Shown: piece by piece, positions 39 to 39,336 of the stretch
How the letters are laid out: the number at the start of each line of letters is the position of its first letter
How positions within the stretch are numbered: position 1 is the stretch's first letter
Source: an uncultured Pseudomonadota bacterium
GTDB taxonomy: Bacteria > SAR324 > NAC60-12
Reading direction: 5' to 3'
Assembly: GCA_964597275.1 (NCBI GenBank)
Contig: CAZQXS010000005.1
Span: 5,441 to 57,536 of the forward strand
Length of the DNA stretch: 52,096 nt
Position numbers and translations under genes: made by a program
The notes under the pieces: model-generated
What the model was told of the DNA's origin: nothing
The model's input: only the letters and a program-made list of their open reading frames with translations
Database searches by the model: none

Positions 39-1316
39 CTACGACTCCAGCCGCACACGCACAGCGGCGGCGTGGGCGTGGAGCTGTTCTTCTTCGGCGA
101 AGCGGATGATCGCGGGACCGTCCTGCCGGAGGCGCTGCGGGGAGTAGCGCAGGATGGAACTGGTCTTGACGAAATCCGGCACGCCGAGTGGCGAGGCGAA
201 CTTGGCGCAACCGGAGGTCGGCAGCGTGTGATTGGGTCCGGCAAAGTAGTCGCCCACAGGCTCCGGGGTGTCGGCTCCCAAGAAAATCGCGCCCGCGTTG
301 CGGATTTGGGCGATGTCCTCCAGCGGATTTGGCGTGAGCAGTTCGAGGTGTTCCGGAGCGAGTTCGTTGACGACCTCAAAGGTTTCGTCCAGCGACTCCA
401 CCACGATGAGGGCGGAGCGGTGGGCAAAGGAGGCTTCGAGGATTTCCCGGCGGGGCAGGGTGGGCACGAGTTCGAGCAGACGCTGCCGCACCGCTTCGGC
501 TTGAGTCGCGGAGGTCGTGACCAAAATCGCCCCGGCTTCCGGATCGTGTTCGGCCTGCGAGAGCAAATCACGGACGAGGTATTCTGTGGGCACGTCCTCG
601 CGGTCGCAGACGATCAGGATTTCGCTCGGTCCTGCAAACGAATCAATGCCGACGATTCCGTACACCTGCCGCTTGGCCTCGGCGACGTAGGCGTTTCCGG
701 GTCCGGTGATCTTCACGACCTTCGGAATCGTTGCGGTGCCATACGCCAACGCGCCCACGGCCTGTGCGCCCCCAACGGCATAAAGCTCGTTCACGCCCAG
801 CAATGCCGCACACGCCATCACCAGTTCGTGGGGGCATCCGTCCTTGCCCGGAGGCGAAACCATCGCAATGCGCGGCACCCCGGCGACTTGCGCGGGAATC
901 ACGTTCATCAGCAACGAGGAGGGGTAGAACGCCCGTCCGCCCGGAATGTACACCCCGGCGCTGTCCACGGGCGTGACCTTCCAGCCAAGGATGGTGCCGT
1001 CCGGACTGAAATCAAGCTGGCTGTCGGTCTTCTGGCGCTCGTGAAACTGGCGGATGTTCGCCGCCGCCCGCTCCAGCACCTCCCGGAGTTCCGCATCCAC
1101 CGCAACAAGCGACTGCTGAAGCCGTGCTTCCGGAACCCGGAAGTCCTCGATCCGCACGCCATCAAAACGCTCGGTGCATTCCCGCACCGCCACATCACCG
1201 CGACGGCGGACCTCCTTGAGAATCGCCCCGACAGTTTCCGCAACATCCGGCGAGGGTTCCACGGCCCCGAAGGTTGCGCGGAATTCGTCAAACCCGTGAA
1301 AGAGCTTCACCTGCAT
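39..1316 (-). CDS. hisD: Histidinol dehydrogenase
   Basis: Motifs GVYIPGG, YPSS, GGAQA, GPGNAYV, AGPSE, SQAEHD, APEHL, GDYFAGPNHTLPT; start overlaps the smc stop (TGATG). Confidence 0.97.
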   Translation of the reverse strand: MQVKLFHGFDEFRATFGAVEPSPDVAETVGAILKEVRRRGDVAVRECTERFDGVRIEDFRVPEARLQQSLVAVDAELREVLERAAANIRQFHERQKTDSQLDFSPDGTILGWKVTPVDSAGVYIPGGRAFYPSSLLMNVIPAQVAGVPRIAMVSPPGKDGCPHELVMACAALLGVNELYAVGGAQAVGALAYGTATIPKVVKITGPGNAYVAEAKRQVYGIVGIDSFAGPSEILIVCDREDVPTEYLVRDLLSQAEHDPEAGAILVTTSATQAEAVRQRLLELVPTLPRREILEASFAHRSALIVVESLDETFEVVNELAPEHLELLTPNPLEDIAQIRNAGAIFLGADTPEPVGDYFAGPNHTLPTSGCAKFASPLGVPDFVKTSSILRYSPQRLRQDGPAIIRFAEEEQLHAHAAAVRVRLES

Positions 1317-4300
1317 CAGGCCACCATGCGTTCGGCTTCCTGAAAGTGGACCGAGACGGTTCTGGAAATGCCCGGTTCTTCCATCGTCACGCCGTAGAGC
1401 CGATCCCCCAATTCCATCGTCTTCTTGTTGTGAGTGATGATGATGAACTGCGAACCGTCCGCCAACTGCCGGATGAGGTTGTTGAAGCGCCCCACGTTGG
1501 CATCATCCAGCGGCGCGTCCACCTCGTCCAGCAGGCAGAACGGGCTAGGCTTGATGAGGAAGATGGCAAAGATCAGCGAGATCGCTGTGAGTGCCTTTTC
1601 GCCGCCAGAGAGCAGGTTGATGTTCTGGAGCTTCTTGCCCGGAGGCTGGGCCACGATATCAATGCCCGCGTCCAGCAAATCCTCGGATTCGGTCAGCACC
1701 ATCCGTGCCTCGCCTCCGCCAAAGAGCTTGGTGAAGACCTCCCCAAAATGCTCGTTGACCTGATCGAACATTTCCCGGAAGCGTCGGCGGGATTCGACGT
1801 TGATGTCGCGGATGGTGCGCTTGAGGTCGTCCGCCGCCTTCTGCAAGTCGTCGGACTGCTCCGTGAGGAACTGCAACCGCTCCACCAAGGCAGCGTGTTC
1901 GTCCGGCGCGGCGAGATTGACCGGGCCGAGCGCGTTGAGCTTGGCCTTGAGCCGCTGCACCTCGCGGGAGAGTTCGCGCACCTTCAGGGTGTCCAAATCC
2001 AGCCCCGGCACCAGCGTTGCGGGAGGCTGCTCGGTGAACTCCTGAAGCTGGGCTTCCAACTGCTCGCGCTGCATGCGGAATTCCGCCAGCTTGAGCGAGG
2101 TGTCGTGAGCCGCACTGACGGCGGTTTCCAGCGTCTTCTGCTTGGCTTGCAGGGTTTGGGTGAGTTCGTTCTGTTTCTCGGTCTGCTCGCCGTGGCGCAC
2201 GGTTTCGGAATCCAGTTCCCCCTTGAGCGTGTCCCGCGACTGCAACAGGCCGCCGAAAGAGGCATCAATCGCCTCGATGCGCTCGCGGCTTTGCGTGAGC
2301 CGACGGCTACTTTCGGACTGCCCGGATTCCAGCAATTGCAGGCGTTGGCGGGATTCGCCATGCTCCTGACGCAGGCGGACGTGCGTGGCCTCGGCGGTCT
2401 TCTGCTGCTCCATCACCTCGGTGAGCGCGACCCGCCGTTGCAGTAAATCCTCCGCTGCGTCCTCCACCCGACGGCTTTGGGACTGAATGCGCTCCTGCTG
2501 GGTTTCGGCAGTCGCCTCCAATTCCTGCCGCTCCGTTTCCAACTCTCCGAGCAGCTTGGTGGTGTTTTCGTAACGCGACTCGGCTCCGGAGATTTCCTCC
2601 TGAAGCTGCCGCAGGTCGGAGTCGAACTGCTCGGAGGTTTGCCGGGCACGGTTCAGTTCAAGCCGATGATGCTCCAGTTCCTTGGTGTGGCTGAGGACAT
2701 CGAGTTCCTGTTCGCGCTGCTCCGACTGCACCTGCTCCAGCCCCTCCTGCGTCTGGCCCCACGCCTCGCGCAGTGCTTCCTGCTGGCCCTCCTGCTCAGA
2801 AATCCCCTCGGCCAGTTCCGTGGTTTGCTGCTCCAGCGTTTCAATCTCCTGCTGGCGTGCGAGGAAGCCCAGCGAGCCTTCTTGCGACGATCCCGTTTGC
2901 ACCGTCACCTCGTCCATCCGCACACCGTCCGGCCCCATCCAAATCACGGAGCCGTCCGGCCATTCCTCCTGAAGGTGCGTCCACACGCCGGACTCGTCCA
3001 TGCGGAAGCGCTGGAAAAAGCGGGAACCCCACGCCTCCAGCAGTTCCCGGAAACTGAGGTGATCGGCCAGCGAGGTTCCCGGTAAGTTCGCGTCCGGAAC
3101 GCCGGGGAGCCGATCCAACGCCAGAAAACGCAACGAACCAAAACCCTCCTGCTGGCAAAACTCGGTGAGTCCCGGAAGCTGGGCGGACTGCTCCACCACG
3201 ATCCAGTCCAGCACCTCGGACAGCACAGGCGCGACCTGCTCCAGCCACTCCGGCTCTGTGATCAGATGATCGGCCAGCAAGCCCCGGATGCCCCACTGCT
3301 CCCGGAGTTCCGGCTGCTCGCGGAGCCGTTCCATGAACTGCCGGACGCTGTCGCTGAAGTCCTCGTACTGCCCTTGAATCTGCTGAAGCGATTCCAGCCG
3401 AGAACGCGCCGCCCCGTGCTGAAAGCGCAGTTTCCGGATGCGCTGGTCCAACTCGTCAATGTCGCTTTCCTGCTGGGAAGAGCGCAGCCCCAACTCTTCA
3501 ATCCGGGTTTCCAGCGTCGCCCGTCCCGCTTGCAGCGACTCCAGTTGCTGCTGGCTGGCGTGGGTGCGGGATTCCGCCTGACGCACCAGTTCGGCATTGG
3601 CCTCGCGCTGCTGCTGCAAACGCTGAAGCCGCTCCCGAAACTGCGTCAGCCGCTCCTCCAGAAAGTTGCGCTGGTTCGTCTGGTTCGTCAGTTCCATGTG
3701 GAGTTGGAGCAGTCGCTTCTGCAAGGACTGCAACACGCTGGTTGCTTCCTGCAAGACATCGTTCTGCTCGGCACGAACCCGCTCAATTTCGGTGACTTCG
3801 TCGGCCAGTTGGTCGCGCTTTTCGGTCAGCGTTTCAAACTGCCCGGAGGCATCCTGCACTGCGCCGTCCAGCCGAGCCAGCCGCCCCTGCAACTCCTCCA
3901 GTTCCTGCTCCTGCCGCCCCTGCTGTTCCTTGGCGTTTTCGATGGTTTGCTGTTCCAGCCGCCGCTGGTTTTCCGCCTCCTGAATCTCGCGTTCTTTCTG
4001 GAAGAGCGCTTCGCGCTTGCGGGTGAGTTGGTCGGTGCGCTGGGTTTGCTCCAGACTGAGGCGTTGCAGATCGGCCTCCACCACAGACTTCTCGGTCTGC
4101 AAATCCTGCTGACGCTGCTGCGCTTCGGCAACTTTGGCCCCCAGCTTTTCCTCCTGAAGCCCCACCTCGTGCCAGCGCAACACGATCAGGTTCTGCTCGG
4201 TTTCCCGGCACTGGGCCTGAAGGTCGAGATAGGTCTGCGCATTCTCAACGTGTTCCCGGAGCCCTTCCTCGCGGTCCTGCAACTCGCCCAGCACATCGTT

Positions 4301-4885
4301 GACGCGCAGCAGGTTTTGGCCCGTCTCTTCCAGACGACGCTCGGCGGCCTGCCGCTTGGTGCGGAACTTGACGATTCCGGCAGCGTCATCAATGAGGGTG
4401 CGGCGATCGGCGGGCTTGGCGCTGACAATCTCCCCAACACGCCCCTGCTCCACAATCGAATAGCCCGTGCCCCCAATGCCCGTGTCCATGAACAACTCCC
4501 GGATGTCCATGAGGCGCACCGGAGTCTTGTTGATCATGTACACGCTTTCGCCAGAGCGGTAGAGGCGGCGCGTGACGGCGATTTCGGAATATTCGTTGAG
4601 ACGGGGCAGGGCGTCCCCGGTGGGATTGGCAAAGGTGAGTGTCACCTCTGCCATGCCGAGCGGCTTTTGAAACGCGGACCCGGAGAAGATGACATCCTCC
4701 ATCGAACCGCCGCGCAAGTGCTTGGGGCGCTGCTCCCCCAACACCCAGCGGATCGCATCCACCACGTTGCTCTTGCCGCACCCGTTGGGGCCAACGACCA
4801 CGGTGGTGCCGTGTTCGGTGAAGCCCATCTCCACCGTATGACAAAAGGACTTGAAGCCGGAAACTTTCAGGCTTTTGATCCGCAT
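1316..4885 (-). CDS. smc: Chromosome segregation protein SMC
   Basis: GFKSF, Walker A GPNGCGKSN, Q-loop EQG, long coiled coils with a central hinge, signature LSGGEK, Walker B/D-loop LLDEVDAPLD; 1189 aa. Confidence 0.97.
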   Translation of the reverse strand: MRIKSLKVSGFKSFCHTVEMGFTEHGTTVVVGPNGCGKSNVVDAIRWVLGEQRPKHLRGGSMEDVIFSGSAFQKPLGMAEVTLTFANPTGDALPRLNEYSEIAVTRRLYRSGESVYMINKTPVRLMDIRELFMDTGIGGTGYSIVEQGRVGEIVSAKPADRRTLIDDAAGIVKFRTKRQAAERRLEETGQNLLRVNDVLGELQDREEGLREHVENAQTYLDLQAQCRETEQNLIVLRWHEVGLQEEKLGAKVAEAQQRQQDLQTEKSVVEADLQRLSLEQTQRTDQLTRKREALFQKEREIQEAENQRRLEQQTIENAKEQQGRQEQELEELQGRLARLDGAVQDASGQFETLTEKRDQLADEVTEIERVRAEQNDVLQEATSVLQSLQKRLLQLHMELTNQTNQRNFLEERLTQFRERLQRLQQQREANAELVRQAESRTHASQQQLESLQAGRATLETRIEELGLRSSQQESDIDELDQRIRKLRFQHGAARSRLESLQQIQGQYEDFSDSVRQFMERLREQPELREQWGIRGLLADHLITEPEWLEQVAPVLSEVLDWIVVEQSAQLPGLTEFCQQEGFGSLRFLALDRLPGVPDANLPGTSLADHLSFRELLEAWGSRFFQRFRMDESGVWTHLQEEWPDGSVIWMGPDGVRMDEVTVQTGSSQEGSLGFLARQQEIETLEQQTTELAEGISEQEGQQEALREAWGQTQEGLEQVQSEQREQELDVLSHTKELEHHRLELNRARQTSEQFDSDLRQLQEEISGAESRYENTTKLLGELETERQELEATAETQQERIQSQSRRVEDAAEDLLQRRVALTEVMEQQKTAEATHVRLRQEHGESRQRLQLLESGQSESSRRLTQSRERIEAIDASFGGLLQSRDTLKGELDSETVRHGEQTEKQNELTQTLQAKQKTLETAVSAAHDTSLKLAEFRMQREQLEAQLQEFTEQPPATLVPGLDLDTLKVRELSREVQRLKAKLNALGPVNLAAPDEHAALVERLQFLTEQSDDLQKAADDLKRTIRDINVESRRRFREMFDQVNEHFGEVFTKLFGGGEARMVLTESEDLLDAGIDIVAQPPGKKLQNINLLSGGEKALTAISLIFAIFLIKPSPFCLLDEVDAPLDDANVGRFNNLIRQLADGSQFIIITHNKKTMELGDRLYGVTMEEPGISRTVSVHFQEAERMVA

Positions 4886-4905
4886 GACTTCCCTGTCGCT
4901 GGACC

Positions 4906-4976
4906 GTTTGGTTAGGTGTTTAGGCGGTAGCTGTTTAGGCTGTAGGCTGTAGGGGTTTAGGCCGTAGGCGTTTAGG
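4906..4976 (+). repeat. Left heptamer array (about 9 GTTTAGG/CTGTAGG-type units), inverted relative to the array at 5332-5414
   Basis: gttagg t gtttagg cggtagc t gtttagg ctgtagg ctgtagg g gtttagg ccgtagg c gtttagg read directly; the last unit contains the TAA stop of the four-helix-bundle gene. Confidence 0.95.
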
Positions 4977-5328
4977 ATTTTCGCAGGGAGCGGATCAGGG
5001 AGCCAAGCACTTTCTCAGCCTCTACCAACTTCTGCTCAAAAGGAGCCGCCTCTGGCGTTTGCAGATACCCCAAACGCGAGGACAATCCCGTTTGGTAGTG
5101 CAGTTCTCTTAGCGAACCAAACGCGATCTCAAGAAAACGGACGTACTCCGCCTGACTTTCTCTCGCACAGCCTTCAACAATGTTCGAGGGCACGGAAACC
5201 GCCGCTCTTCTCATTTGAGAAGTCAGCCCATACACTTCGCCCTTGGGGAAGCTTCGGGTGAGGGCATAGGTCAACATCGCCACCTCATCTGCCAGTTCAA
5301 ATGCCCGGAGTTTCGTATGATCCCGCAC
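4972..5328 (-). CDS. Four helix bundle protein (23S rRNA intervening-sequence protein / TIGR02436 family)
   Basis: 118 aa, GTG start; family-typical FP..E.YGLTSQMRRAAVSVPSNIVEG.AR and FL.IA.GSL.EL. Confidence 0.92.
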   Translation of the reverse strand: MRDHTKLRAFELADEVAMLTYALTRSFPKGEVYGLTSQMRRAAVSVPSNIVEGCARESQAEYVRFLEIAFGSLRELHYQTGLSSRLGYLQTPEAAPFEQKLVEAEKVLGSLIRSLRKS

Positions 5329-5331
5329 AAT

Positions 5332-5414
5332 CCCCTACAGCCTAAACCCCCACAGCCTACAGCCTAAACCCCTACAGCCTAAACCCCTACAGCCTACAGC
5401 CTAAACTCCTAAAA
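5332..5414 (-). repeat. Right heptamer array (11 CCTACAG/CCTAAAC-type units on the plus strand)
   Basis: cc cctacag cctaaac c cccacag cctacag cctaaac c cctacag cctaaac c cctacag cctacag cctaaac t cctaaaa; 5377-5406 is the exact reverse complement of 4933-4962. Confidence 0.95.
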
Positions 5415-5921
5415 CGGAATGTCGTCCTTGATGAAATCATCATCGGGGTTGGACCGCTGTGGCGCATTGCTCCCGTAGTCGGCTCTTCCGCCGCCACTGC
5501 CACCGCTGGCTCCTCCCTCATTCCTGGGGGCCTGCTGATTCGCAGAGCGTCCCTGTCCCCCGCCGTAGCCGCCGGAGTCGCCATCGGACTGGCGGGATTC
5601 GAGAAACTGGATTCCGGTGGCCACGACTTCGGTACGATAGCGTTTCTGCCCCTGCTGGTCCTCCCAGCTTCGAGTTTGCAGACGGCCTTCGATGTACACC
5701 GAACGCCCTTTTTTCAGATAGTTCTGAGCCAGATCGGCCAAGCGGTCAAAGGCGACAATGTCGTGCCACTCGGTCTTTTCCTGCCGATTGCCCTGCTTGT
5801 CGGTCCAGCGATCCGTGGTCGCCAGCGAGAAATTCGCCACCGCGCTGCCTGCTTGCGTGTAGCGGATTTCCGGATCCTTGCCGAGATTGCCAATCAGCAT
5901 CACCTTGTTCAAACTTCCCAT
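5409..5921 (-). CDS. ssb: Single-stranded DNA-binding protein
   Basis: [31 protein letters not shown], Gly-rich linker, C-terminal DDIPF. Confidence 0.97.
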
Positions 5922-5958
5922 ACGTCCTCTTTCAGTTTCGAGTAAATCGTGCCTTGTT

Positions 5959-6576
5959 CTAACGCAGTGGCGTCAATAAGGAAAGTGCTTTTTTGATTCG
6001 GACCTCAAAAGACTGCTCGCCATTGCCGACCTGCCGCAACACCGGAAGGATTTCGCGCTCGGCGTAGCCCATGTTCTTGAGGGCCGAAAGCACCTCGTCA
6101 GTATCCGGTTTTTCGCCGGGCAATTCAAATGCCGCCACGCTCTCCATCGCCACTTCCAGCCCCGGAACGGGATGTTTCTTGAGCTGGTCCCGCATGTCGA
6201 GGCAGAGTTTGGCGGCGGTCTTCTTGCCAATGCCCGGAACCTGAGCGAAGCGGTTGGCGTTGCCCTGCTGCACGGAGCTGATCAACTCCTGCGGCGGCAT
6301 CACCGAAAGCACTCCCAGTGCCATCTTTGGCCCCACCCCGGAGGTCCGGATGAGCAGGTCAAACAAGTGCCGCTCGGCGGTGGAGGCAAAGCCGTAGAGC
6401 GAAATCTCGTCCTCCCGGACCTGCGTGTGGACGTGCAGCACCACCTCGTCTCCGGTCTTCAGTCGGGACAGCAACGGCTGCGGGATGTTGGCGGCATAGC
6501 CCACGCCGGAGAGGGTTTTCACGACCACCACTCCAGAATCGGCGGACAGCACCTGTCCTTCGAGATACGCGATCAT
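5959..6576 (-). CDS. ruvA: Holliday junction branch migration protein RuvA
   Basis: [22 protein letters not shown], HhH motifs SGVGPK and VPGIGKKTA. Confidence 0.95.
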
Positions 6577-9335: not shown

Positions 9336-10007
9336 TTACGACTTGGCTTCAGCGTCCTTGGCCTCAGACTTGACCTCCTCAGCCGGAATGGCCGCTTCGC
9401 TGGCCGCTTCTGCGGCGGGTGCCGCCTCTTCAGCAGGTGCTACCTCTTCCGCCGGAGCTTCCGGGGCTGCTTCCACCGGAGTTTCCGCAACCTCTGCCGC
9501 CGGAGTTTCCGCAGCCTCTGCCGCCTGCTCGGCCTCCGGTGGCTCGTCCGCCTTCACCTCGGCGCTGACCTGTTCCAGCGTCTTGCTCGACTTCTTGGCA
9601 GGCTTCTTCTTTTTCTTGGCGTCCTTGAGGGCGGTGAGCGTGTCATGCTCACTGCCGATGAGTTGGACAATCGCCATGTCCGACGCATCCCCGGCCCGCG
9701 TGGTGGCGAGCTTGATGATGCGGCAGTAGCCGCCCGGACGGTCGGCGTAGCGCTCGGCCAAATCGTCAAACAGATTCGCCATCGCCCGCTTCGATTTCAC
9801 AAAGCGCAGGGCCATGCGGCGGGCATGCAAATCCCCGCGCTTGGCAAAGGTGATCATTTTCTCCAACGGGCGGCGCACTTCCTTGGCACGGGCCAAGGTG
9901 GTCGTGACCTGTCCTTCTTCAAGGATGGAGGTCACCATGTTGCGCATCATCGCCTTGCGGTGTGCGGTGGTGACGCCGAGTCGCCGTCCTGCCTTCAGGT
10001 GTCGCAT
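9336..10007 (-). CDS. rplQ: 50S ribosomal protein L17 with a long Ala/Glu/Pro-rich C-terminal extension
   Basis: [29 protein letters not shown]; follows rpoA. Confidence 0.96.
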
Positions 10008-38555: not shown

Positions 38556-39299
38556 ATGGCCAAGCGTTGTCGGCTCGATGTGCTGCTGGTGGAGCGAGGA
38601 CTCGCCGAAACCCGGGAAAAGGCGCGAGCCTTGGTGCTGGCCGGAGCCGTGCGCGTCAATGGCGAAGTTTCGGGAAAGCCCGGAACTGCGGTCTTGGCGA
38701 CGGCTGTGTTGGAAGTTGTCGGGCAGGATCATCCCTACGCCAGCCGGGGCGGCCTCAAGCTGGAAAAGGCGCTCCACGCCTTTCAGATCAACCCGCAGGG
38801 CTGGACCGCACTTGATGTCGGCGCATCCACCGGAGGCTTCACCGATTGTCTGCTTCAACATGGTGCGGCCAAGGTTTATGCCGTGGATGTGGGCTACGGG
38901 CAGTTGGCGTGGAAGTTGCGGCAAGAGGACCGTGTGGTTGTGCTGGAACGCACCAACTTCCGAAACCTTGCTTACGAAACCATCGGCGAAACCGTGGGCC
39001 TTGTGGTCATTGACGCCTCGTTCATTTCCCTGAAGCTGCTCCTGCCCAAGGTCCGGGAATTCCTGACTCCGGAAGGGCAGGTGCTTGCGCTCGTGAAACC
39101 GCAGTTCGAGGCGGGCCGAGCGGAGGTGGGGAAGCGTGGGCGTGTGGCAGAAGGCGAAGTGCATGAGCGTGTGCTGGACGAACTCGGCACCGCCGCCCAA
39201 GCCTTGGGGTTCCGGGTGCTTGGCCAGTGCGATTCTCCGATTCTTGGAAAAAAAAGCGGCAACCGGGAATTTTTCCTGCACCTTAGCTTAGGGGTTTAG
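38556..39299 (+). CDS. tlyA: TlyA family rRNA (cytidine-2'-O)-methyltransferase
   Basis: S4 domain RLDVLLVERGL, SRGGLKL, LDVGASTGGFTD, DVGYGQL, SFISL, KPQFE, GN.EF. Confidence 0.95.
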   Translation: MAKRCRLDVLLVERGLAETREKARALVLAGAVRVNGEVSGKPGTAVLATAVLEVVGQDHPYASRGGLKLEKALHAFQINPQGWTALDVGASTGGFTDCLLQHGAAKVYAVDVGYGQLAWKLRQEDRVVVLERTNFRNLAYETIGETVGLVVIDASFISLKLLLPKVREFLTPEGQVLALVKPQFEAGRAEVGKRGRVAEGEVHERVLDELGTAAQALGFRVLGQCDSPILGKKSGNREFFLHLSLGV

Positions 39300-39336
39300 G
39301 CTGTAGGGGTTTAGGCTGTTAGGAGTTTAGGCGTAG
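39283..39336 (+). repeat. Solo copy of the GTTTAGG/CTGTAGG heptamer array
   Basis: ttagc ttagg g gtttagg ctgtagg g gtttagg ctgttagg a gtttagg cgtag; 39289-39319 is the exact reverse complement of 5359-5389. Confidence 0.92.

Follow-up and report, generated by a model that had tools for sequence, protein, structure and literature searches.

Intervening sequences (IVSs) of 23S rRNA are the closest described counterparts of the element reported here. As set out in the main text of PMC4990558, the IVS of Coxiella is 428 nt long, lies in helix 45 of the 23S rRNA and is bounded by a 28-bp terminal stem that is cut by RNase III. Two to three GACAGAT repeats and a degenerate one stand directly 5' of the ATG start of its open reading frame (ORF), S23p, in a copy number that varies between strains. 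The same text describes this IVS as patchy among strains and suspected to be mobile, and cites the first description of an IVS ORF as dating from 1993. Here we describe a unit of similar design in another setting: a gene of the same protein family, PF05635, enclosed by inverted arrays of 7-nt repeats and located between the protein-coding genes ssb and smc of an uncultured Pseudomonadota bacterium (GTDB lineage SAR324, NAC60-12). It lies in a stretch of 52,096 nt (assembly GCA_964597275.1, contig CAZQXS010000005.1), which as a whole is called the window below; the gene together with its two arrays, or arms, is called the cassette.

The short tandemly repeated repetitive (STRR) sequences of cyanobacteria are scattered heptamer repeats whose origin is unexplained. 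Similar arrays have been described elsewhere. The main text of PMC4692102 counts 186 GGGAATC arrays in X. campestris, of which 70 form convergent pairs and whose role is given as unknown, and also treats the GGGGA(C/T)T repeats of Nostoc; that of PMC4679880 reports 169 sets of TAACTGA repeats and treats this repeat in Beggiatoaceae, cyanobacteria and Bacteroidetes, with a patchy distribution for which horizontal spread is suggested and 'no mechanism is evident'. Neither main text mentions S23 or four-helix proteins. Apart from the heptamers of the Coxiella IVS, we found no link between PF05635 and heptamer arrays in the open full-text literature, a body of text that stops short of subscription papers and of supplements, including the gene tables of PMC4679880 and PMC4692102, which could hold such a link. 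Another related system is Avd, the accessory protein of diversity-generating retroelements (DGRs), with which the text of PMC10053308 equates PF05635. The cassette protein shares with Avd a related four-helix-bundle fold and family, and matches the profile NF033474 weakly (26.7 bits). However, this score lies below the 80-bit cut-off, the assembly holds no match to the reverse transcriptase family RVT_1, and no template or variable repeats are seen beside the gene, so that the combination which defines a DGR Avd, an equivalog-level score and an adjacent reverse transcriptase with such repeats, is not found here.

In the window, hisD, smc, the 118-aa ORF and ssb all lie on the minus strand (Table 1). 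The ORF product is a full-length member of the S23p family: it matches PF05635 (23S_rRNA_IVP) over residues 6-109 (E 2.8e-31, 108.3 bits, cut-off 33.8) and TIGR02436 with 110.6 bits (cut-off 24). By sequence, 2GSC (2gsc_A), the Xanthomonas protein XCC0516, is the one relative with a solved structure (E 2.4e-23). The arms are tandem arrays in opposite orientation, complementary at 87% over 61 nt and at 92% over 49 nt, and are predicted to form a stem that encloses the ORF. The window contains the heptamer GTTTAGG 11 times (1.43 expected) and CTGTAGG 9 times (1.67 expected), and neither count was reached in any of 100 shuffles. The arm-to-arm Smith-Waterman score was 82, against a median of 16 and a maximum of 25 in 500 random pairs of subwindows of the same spacing drawn from this window. 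On the sense strand, the 5' array opens with the ssb stop codon (TAG, 5409-5411) as its first unit and terminates with CTGTAGGGGATT immediately 5' of the GTG, and the TAA of the gene sits within a CCTAAAC unit. Codon use sets the gene apart from its surroundings, with AGA making up 4 of its 11 Arg codons vs 2 of 225 in seven neighbouring genes, and with a GC content at third codon positions of 0.59 vs 0.70-0.79 in the neighbours. An initial annotation of this locus, made from the letters of the window, had described the gene, its neighbours, the abutting inverted arrays, the 30-bp repeat and the AGA preference, and every one of these details was confirmed. It had read the locus as an IVS-like, repeat-bounded cassette, which in the light of the results below is largely right.

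Table 1. Coordinates of the cassette, its host genes and related features (positions in the window unless a contig is named)
Feature	Position	Strand	Description
smc, downstream host gene	1316-4885	-	co-directional with the cassette gene
Host spacer with smc ribosome-binding region	4886-4912	-	conserved in both same-genus genomes without the gene
3' arm (sense strand)	4913-4976	-	CCTAAAC/CCTACAG/CCTACGG units, reverse complement of the 5' arm; holds the TAA of the gene
Segment absent from the cassette-less marine metagenome allele	4931-5393		463 bp; the joint 4930 to 5394 leaves the palindrome ...GGCGGTAG / CTACAGCC...
Perfect 30-bp inverted repeat, first half	4933-4962		exact reverse complement of its partner 5377-5406
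Four-helix-bundle gene	4972-5328	-	118 aa, GTG start, TAA stop; PF05635/TIGR02436; codon use foreign to neighbours
5' arm (sense strand)	5329-5411	-	about 11 units GTTTAGG(G)/CTGTAGG, from the ssb stop to 3 nt before the GTG
Perfect 30-bp inverted repeat, second half	5377-5406		partner 4933-4962
ssb, upstream host gene	5409-5921	-	co-directional with the cassette gene
Gene-less one-armed array, same units as the cassette	39288-39332	+	sequence TTAGGGGTTTAGGCTG...; between genes taken to be tlyA-like and parB-like
Second PF05635 gene	contig C74, 1429-1806 (L001)	-	flanked by inverted GGTCAGT-type arrays

The cassette entered the ssb-smc spacer in the lineage of the source genus and is now being lost from it by internal deletions. 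In the source genome (92.5% complete; G000 in the comparisons) the gap between the two genes measures 523 nt. SSB was found in 39 of 41 relatives, and the DNA 3' of ssb was examined at 27 of 30 loci. Five genomes of two other genera have gaps without such arrays, of 108-110 nt (G003, G020) and 256-265 nt (G006, G022, G016). Within the source genus, the gap of G002 is 133 nt long and keeps a stub of the 5' array, the final ~37 nt of the gene and the 3' array, and that of G001 is 139 nt long and holds a short palindrome of units and scraps of the 3' array. The short form of G002 must be a deletion product, because a fragment of the gene is retained there. The gap of a sixth genome, G014, is masked by N, and in the remaining relatives smc lies 1.1-1.3 kb from ssb or not within 1.5 kb. 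The comparison of empty and filled junctions proposed in the initial annotation gave an array-free junction in other genera and remnants in the same genus.

The stretch was also found in marine metagenomes, four runs of which were compared as contigs. A 553-nt contig of run X5 spans the whole cassette (4844-5403) with one unit fewer. In run X9, which belongs to another study, 4930 is followed immediately by 5394 in a 278-nt contig with a depth of 5.75 (0 and 1 other letters), and the same run holds contigs of the filled form (4920-5162) with a depth of 4.3. The deleted allele of X9 is a palindrome of the outermost units. A one-unit indel of 7 nt at 5352, in the 5' arm, is seen in contigs of both X5 and X9 and thus in two studies; natural populations vary in arm length unit by unit. 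Three different deletion products therefore exist, filled and deleted alleles co-occur in nature, and the internal deletions leave palindromic or one-armed heptamer arrays. Taken together, the empty sites, the remnants and the co-existing deleted allele identify the cassette as an inserted and dispensable unit, in agreement with the repeat-bounded cassette that had been proposed. Two further joints were discarded. One, in X5, connects 4939 to 5356 through 40 letters which are identical to the spacer of a gene-less array pair on contig C81 and thus reflect cross-mapping of arrays, not an allele of this locus. The other, an X7 contig that joins 4906 to 5629, has 24 other letters, with unknown sequence in between, and so derives from a diverged relative.

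In one related genome the cassette has multiplied to dozens of copies. G008, a complete genome of 4.3 Mb from the same taxonomic family, holds 87 PF05635 matches (examples at L023, L026 and L028-L030), most of them near-identical frames of 120 aa and some with stop codons. The repeated unit, in which most of the matches lie, is ~560 nt long and consists of the gene between inverted arrays of CGTGCTC type and, outside these arrays, further imperfectly inverted sequence (imperfect inverted ends of ~110 nt) with one palindrome per end. One of these copies is missing at the matching site of a genus-mate, G017, where 48 nt without arrays are found. Presence and absence at matching sites, as expected of a transposon or a miniature inverted-repeat transposable element (MITE), are thus seen both at ssb-smc and between G008 and G017. 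At one G008 locus (L030) two units stand head to tail, and copies cluster in repeat-rich regions which also hold arrays of GGCACAAAGG, the unit of one G008 cassette.

Most homologs of the gene, from many bacterial phyla, show the same gene-plus-inverted-array design, and each uses a unit of its own. The source assembly itself has a second PF05635 gene, with a different heptamer in its arms, between the genes for the alpha and beta subunits of NAD(P) transhydrogenase; this paralog thus has inverted arrays of its own, the outcome for which the initial annotation had proposed to test. The family also matches Bacteroides thetaiotaomicron in a control set. PF05635 is present in 13 of the 41 relatives, and when 23 of the relatives' loci were inspected by eye, nearly all had a short-period array before the start codon and its complement at or after the stop, with a unit specific to the locus. 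In a species-level scan, with one genome per species, 575 relatives were confirmed, of which the best 80 were taken and 77 loci were usable. These best 80 come from Bacteroidota, Planctomycetota, Acidobacteriota, Chloroflexota, Proteobacteria, Clostridia, Elusimicrobiota, a candidate-phylum bacterium, Ignavibacteriota and one cyanobacterium. The initial annotation had named homologs free of inverted short-repeat arrays as an observation that would speak against it, and the scan contradicted this: inverted-repeat flanks exceeded the 99th percentile of the controls, 385 random pairs of windows of the same spacing drawn from the same loci, at 47 of the 77 loci, with medians of 32 vs 16. Periodicity exceeded the control 99th percentile in 39 flanks, from 29 loci with at least one such flank, and the best lag was 7 in 37 of them and 8 in the other two. 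At 40 clear period-7 loci, the similarity of a unit to the complement of the opposite arm was 0.80 within a locus and 0.55 between loci. The arms also have a fixed polarity; upstream units on the sense strand have little C, and AGT, TAG or CAG is much more frequent in them than in their complements. That all this should reflect chance, or slippage-prone DNA unlinked to the gene, is extremely improbable: the text of PMC4692102 describes heptamer repeats as common among bacteria, but such an origin is for practical purposes excluded by scores and counts that exceed the controls, by the inversion of the arms, by their constant polarity and by the recurrence of the design in many phyla. Two loci of the family showed compound forms. 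L005 (1850-2080) has a partial tandem duplication, in which a truncated second upstream array and a gene start follow directly after the cassette, and the cassette at L009 (1350-1990) is flanked on either side by two unit families, of CGTTGAC and GGAGAAC types, as though one cassette had come to lie within the arms of another.

The cassettes lie mostly in the direction of their neighbours, between genes of one operon. When the longest open frame on either side was used as a rough stand-in for a gene call, the two neighbours shared the direction of the cassette gene at 53 of 91 loci and both had the opposite one at 10, while 24 were mixed and 4 uncallable. The protein match began a median of 64 nt after the upstream stop. 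Verified host junctions are pntA-pntB, accB-accC and two between permease genes. Co-direction within operons is the pattern expected of a promoterless unit that is read from its host operon, and a scan of 4700-6200 with a sigma-70-type consensus found no sigma-70-like promoter and no intrinsic terminator. None of 40 homolog loci lies in rRNA genes according to rRNA models, and the present cassette, between ssb and smc, is outside helices 9, 25 and 45, where 23S rRNA IVSs are located. When the minus-strand RNA was folded, the minimum free energy was -237.4 kcal/mol vs -193.0 +/- 7.3 for shuffled sequences (z -6.1; 0 of 100 as low), and in the predicted structure the arms form an outer stem of ~70 bp around the ORF, the GUG and the Shine-Dalgarno (SD)-like AGGGG. 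The source assembly also contains an RNase III domain gene (122 bits, cut-off 35). A metatranscriptome contig of 152 nt is identical to 5169-5317 and is a weak hint that RNA of the cassette gene exists; in run X19 there were no exact RNA contigs on ssb or smc, and contigs cannot rank expression.

Together, this evidence makes it probable, in our judgement, that the cassette is a selfish, promoterless stem-loop gene unit, akin to the ORF-bearing IVS of 23S rRNA and residing here in an mRNA operon. Its unit is the PF05635 gene between two arms, each a tandem array of ~7-nt units, of which the downstream one is the reverse complement of the upstream one. We infer that it would be transcribed as part of the ssb-smc transcript, in which the arms could pair into the ~70-bp stem and mask the start region of the gene. 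RNase III might then cut this stem, freeing a cassette RNA of ~0.45 kb and separating the ssb and smc mRNAs. Complementarity of the arms could be kept by slippage of whole units plus selection or conversion, and the protein, likely a pentamer as in 2GSC, may bind its own heptamer arrays. The likeness to the 23S rRNA IVS is thus a PF05635 ('S23p') ORF in the loop of a long inverted-repeat stem that presumably rides the host transcript, and the patchiness and suspected mobility reported for the Coxiella IVS in the text of PMC4990558 are matched as well. Unlike an IVS, the cassette stands between protein-coding genes and has long multi-unit arms on both sides, and excision by RNase III, shown for the IVS, is here only inferred.

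Heptamer arrays without the gene are scattered through the source genome. Such arrays of the same heptamers had escaped the initial annotation, which had suggested a genome-wide search for the heptamers. Among strict tandem arrays of the source genome, 12 have a period of 7, two a period of 9, and none a period of 5, 6, 8 or 10. Arrays of TAGG-type units were found at 17 loci, two of which are the arms of the cassette itself, and the pattern TAGG-N3-4-TAGG-N3-4-TAGG has 61 matches vs 4 for its reverse. The two same-genus genomes with a decayed cassette have 7 and 7 matches (controls 6 and 7), and two other genera 0 and 2. The source genome thus contains scattered heptamer repeats like the STRR sequences. 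A second group of ~10 scattered arrays, with GGCTGGT/GGTCGGT-like units, resembles the arms of the second PF05635 paralog. In the window, one solo array (Table 1), between genes named by eye, supplies the stop codon of the upstream, presumably tlyA-like, ORF, and is absent from G001 and G002, where ~65 nt of unrelated sequence occupy the same junction. Gene-less arrays also occur as inverted pairs, at C81:1938-2060 and C82:9316-9395. We further noted in this genome a REP-like 26-mer with a palindrome (GAGCGGGCCATGCCCGCGAAAAATCG; REP, repetitive extragenic palindrome) in 12 copies at up to 4 mismatches (C42 at 22200 and 24392, C99 at 6057 and 6270, C127 at 1519, and 7 more), often directly adjoining heptamer arrays of several unit types.

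The same correspondence between arm unit and scattered arrays was seen in two other lineages. One is a Xanthomonadaceae-like set, 61 genomes of the family around a Luteimonas locus, of which 31 are PF05635-positive and 30 negative. Many of the loci in this set lie between accB and accC and have, by eye, GGGATTC/GGGAATC/GTGATTC arms; the protein of one cassette of this family matches XCC0516 with E 4.7e-50. Of the 31 positive genomes, 22 hold nine or more matches to a three-unit GAWTS-type pattern. All 15 genomes whose listed cassette has GAWTS-type arms contain 79-642 matches, and a sixteenth locus, with mixed arms, is in a genome with 2. In the other lineage, GGCACAAAGG has 244 matches in G008, none in G017, G018 or G006, and 2 in G019, both at the cassette of G019 itself. 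A TCAG-type pattern was found in three genomes with TCAG-armed cassettes and in neither of two others searched. In three lineages, therefore, scattered arrays share the arm unit of the resident cassette, and these include the published Xanthomonas GGGAATC repeats. The cassette arms resemble scattered heptamer repeats in being intergenic 7-nt arrays, single or as convergent inverted pairs, with a strain-variable copy number; Xanthomonadaceae-like cassettes have GGGAATC/GGGATTC arms and some cassettes have arms of TAACTGA type. They differ in that the arrays of the cassette enclose a gene. A broader proposal, which we advance only tentatively and hold to be doubtful, is that bacterial heptamer repeats have their trans-acting determinant in the PF05635 proteins found outside DGRs. 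In such a scheme an oligomer would recognise its own 7-nt unit, the gene with its arms would be the autonomous, transposase-less mobile form, the scattered arrays (STRR, Xanthomonas GGGAATC, TAACTGA) its gene-less offspring, and the 23S rRNA IVS the same element in an rRNA hairpin.

Several observations weigh against the reading of the cassette as a selfish stem-loop unit and against its connection with the scattered arrays. At 30 of the 77 scanned loci the inverted flanks stayed under the control threshold, many of these having shorter arrays by eye. No fragment of the cassette gene was found beside any solo array of the source genome by blastn with word size 9, except a conserved stretch of 35 nt of the paralog, so that the case for solo arrays as decayed cassettes comes solely from the ssb-smc remnants. 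The GAWTS-type pattern also reaches at least 9 matches in 7 of the 30 PF05635-negative genomes (the other 23 have at most 2), six PF05635-positive genomes have arrays though their listed cassette has other arms, and the genomes compared are related, so that these counts are non-independent trials. The RNA evidence is one metatranscriptome contig which has no strand information and could be carried-over DNA. The protein is without a known enzymatic fold, and the source assembly gave no match in searches that covered two families, RVT_1 and Y1_Tnp. Finally, in a wobble test on 62 loci, transition mismatches on the sense RNA were 91 A.C vs 50 G.U (33 vs 13 loci), the opposite of what a sense-RNA stem predicts. 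This test is confounded by the need for SD and stop codons inside the arms and by register ambiguity; the bias would fit pairing on the other strand, and may reflect those SD and stop-codon needs. The IVS-like stem in mRNA foreseen in the initial annotation stands as far as the fold, the enclosure of ORF, start codon and SD-like bases, and the Coxiella precedent are concerned, but the mismatches do not favour it.

The strand bias bears directly on another explanation, in which a recombinase encoded elsewhere (a Y1 transposase, a REP-associated tyrosine transposase or an integron-like enzyme) would act in trans to move the cassette as a DNA hairpin, with the arms, folded on one strand, as the recombination site. 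Pairing of the antisense strand is what the wobble bias favours, palindromes stand near both ends of the G008 unit, and the genomes with multicopy units, G008 and G017, have 20 and 15 Y1_Tnp matches. Yet the source genome has none. The initial annotation had reported the window to be free of transposase, integrase and reverse transcriptase, and the two families searched, RVT_1 and Y1_Tnp, have no match in the whole assembly; reverse transcriptase and Y1 transposase were rejected as movers. An IS200-type copy of G008, the one insertion sequence copy examined, has different end hairpins. By eye there was no target-site duplication at the ssb-smc locus or in five G008 copies, and no conserved target in those five. 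A loop of ~350 nt would also be long for a DNA hairpin, and we regard this explanation as very unlikely. With integron cassettes, the present cassette shares a small, promoterless, co-directional ORF, presumably read from outside and bounded by a foldable imperfect palindrome; attC, however, lies downstream only, whereas the foldable site of the cassette consists of heptamer arrays, one part on either side of the ORF. An integrase gene or attI site was not seen, though no search aimed at them was made. With MITEs and their autonomous parents, and with REPs and bacterial interspersed mosaic elements (BIMEs), it has in common inverted ends, bursts of copies, gene-less derivatives and an intergenic location. 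It departs from them in that its ends are tandem arrays which differ between related elements and in that no target duplication was seen; the transposase search, for Y1_Tnp only, found none.

The gene-less arrays could instead have come first. Heptamer arrays would then have spread independently, as STRR- or BIME-like repeats, and PF05635 genes would insert or persist at the centre of palindromic pairs, the arms being host DNA. Such an order would account for the X9 allele, a palindrome of outer units with the joint at its centre, for the gene-less inverted pairs on C81 and C82, for the many arrays in seven PF05635-negative genomes, and for the arrays that adjoin the REP-like 26-mer; rRNA intervening sequences also replace hairpin tips, according to the text of PMC4990558. 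We nevertheless consider it unlikely, for both empty counterparts, the ssb-smc junction of the five genomes of two other genera and the G017 site that matches a G008 copy, are free of arrays, the arrays belong to the repeated unit in G008, the G002 short form with its gene fragment is a deletion product, and GGCACAAAGG abounds in G008 and is missing from its genus-mate G017.

A further alternative, compatible with the selfish cassette and not exclusive of it, is that of a regulator and its regulon. The protein would putatively bind heptamer arrays in RNA or single-stranded DNA with sequence specificity, the arms would be autoregulatory and the scattered arrays would mark the transcripts under control, which would make the protein the missing factor of the post-transcriptional network proposed for the TAACTGA repeats. 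It is in keeping with this that arm units equal scattered-array units in three lineages, that the source genome has two paralogs and two array families, that the polarity of the arms is fixed relative to the gene, and that arrays are intergenic and lie beside start and stop codons, as also reported in the text of PMC4679880. Protein identity and unit similarity are weakly correlated as well (Spearman 0.163, reached by 5 of 2000 permutations), but common descent alone would give such a correlation, and we did not use it as support for specificity. The cassette is, moreover, readily lost, and since point mutation cannot generate binding sites of 3-14 tandem units at scores of places, a copying mechanism would still be needed. 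For these reasons a regulon as the explanation of the arrays seems to us improbable.

A cassette of this design, shared by most relatives in many phyla and connected with scattered heptamer repeats, appears to be previously undescribed. The IVS ORF has been without a known role; a gene-in-stem unit that dwells mainly in operons across bacterial phyla makes it a member of a general class and not a curiosity of a few pathogens. This class is thereby connected with another question, that of the 7-nt tandem repeats which are in excess in bacterial genomes and patchily spread among them, and it may explain their origin; both the role of the ORF and the origin of the heptamers can be tested through one small protein and defined units. 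Cassettes between genes for subunits of single enzymes (pntA-pntB, accB-accC, permease pairs) may affect the processing of operon mRNA and the balance of subunits.

Two arrays of the source genome lie beside a run of N or at a contig end (C9, 36377-36405; C173, 5655-5718). Arrays probably break short-read assemblies, which is of relevance to metagenome-assembled genomes and would make counts of cassettes and arrays in draft genomes lower bounds. Elsewhere in the window, tandem repeats of 12, 18 and 24 nt (9403-9525) lie inside a minus-strand ORF (9336-10007) which by eye we take to resemble ribosomal protein L17 and whose product has an acidic tail rich in Ala, Glu and Pro.

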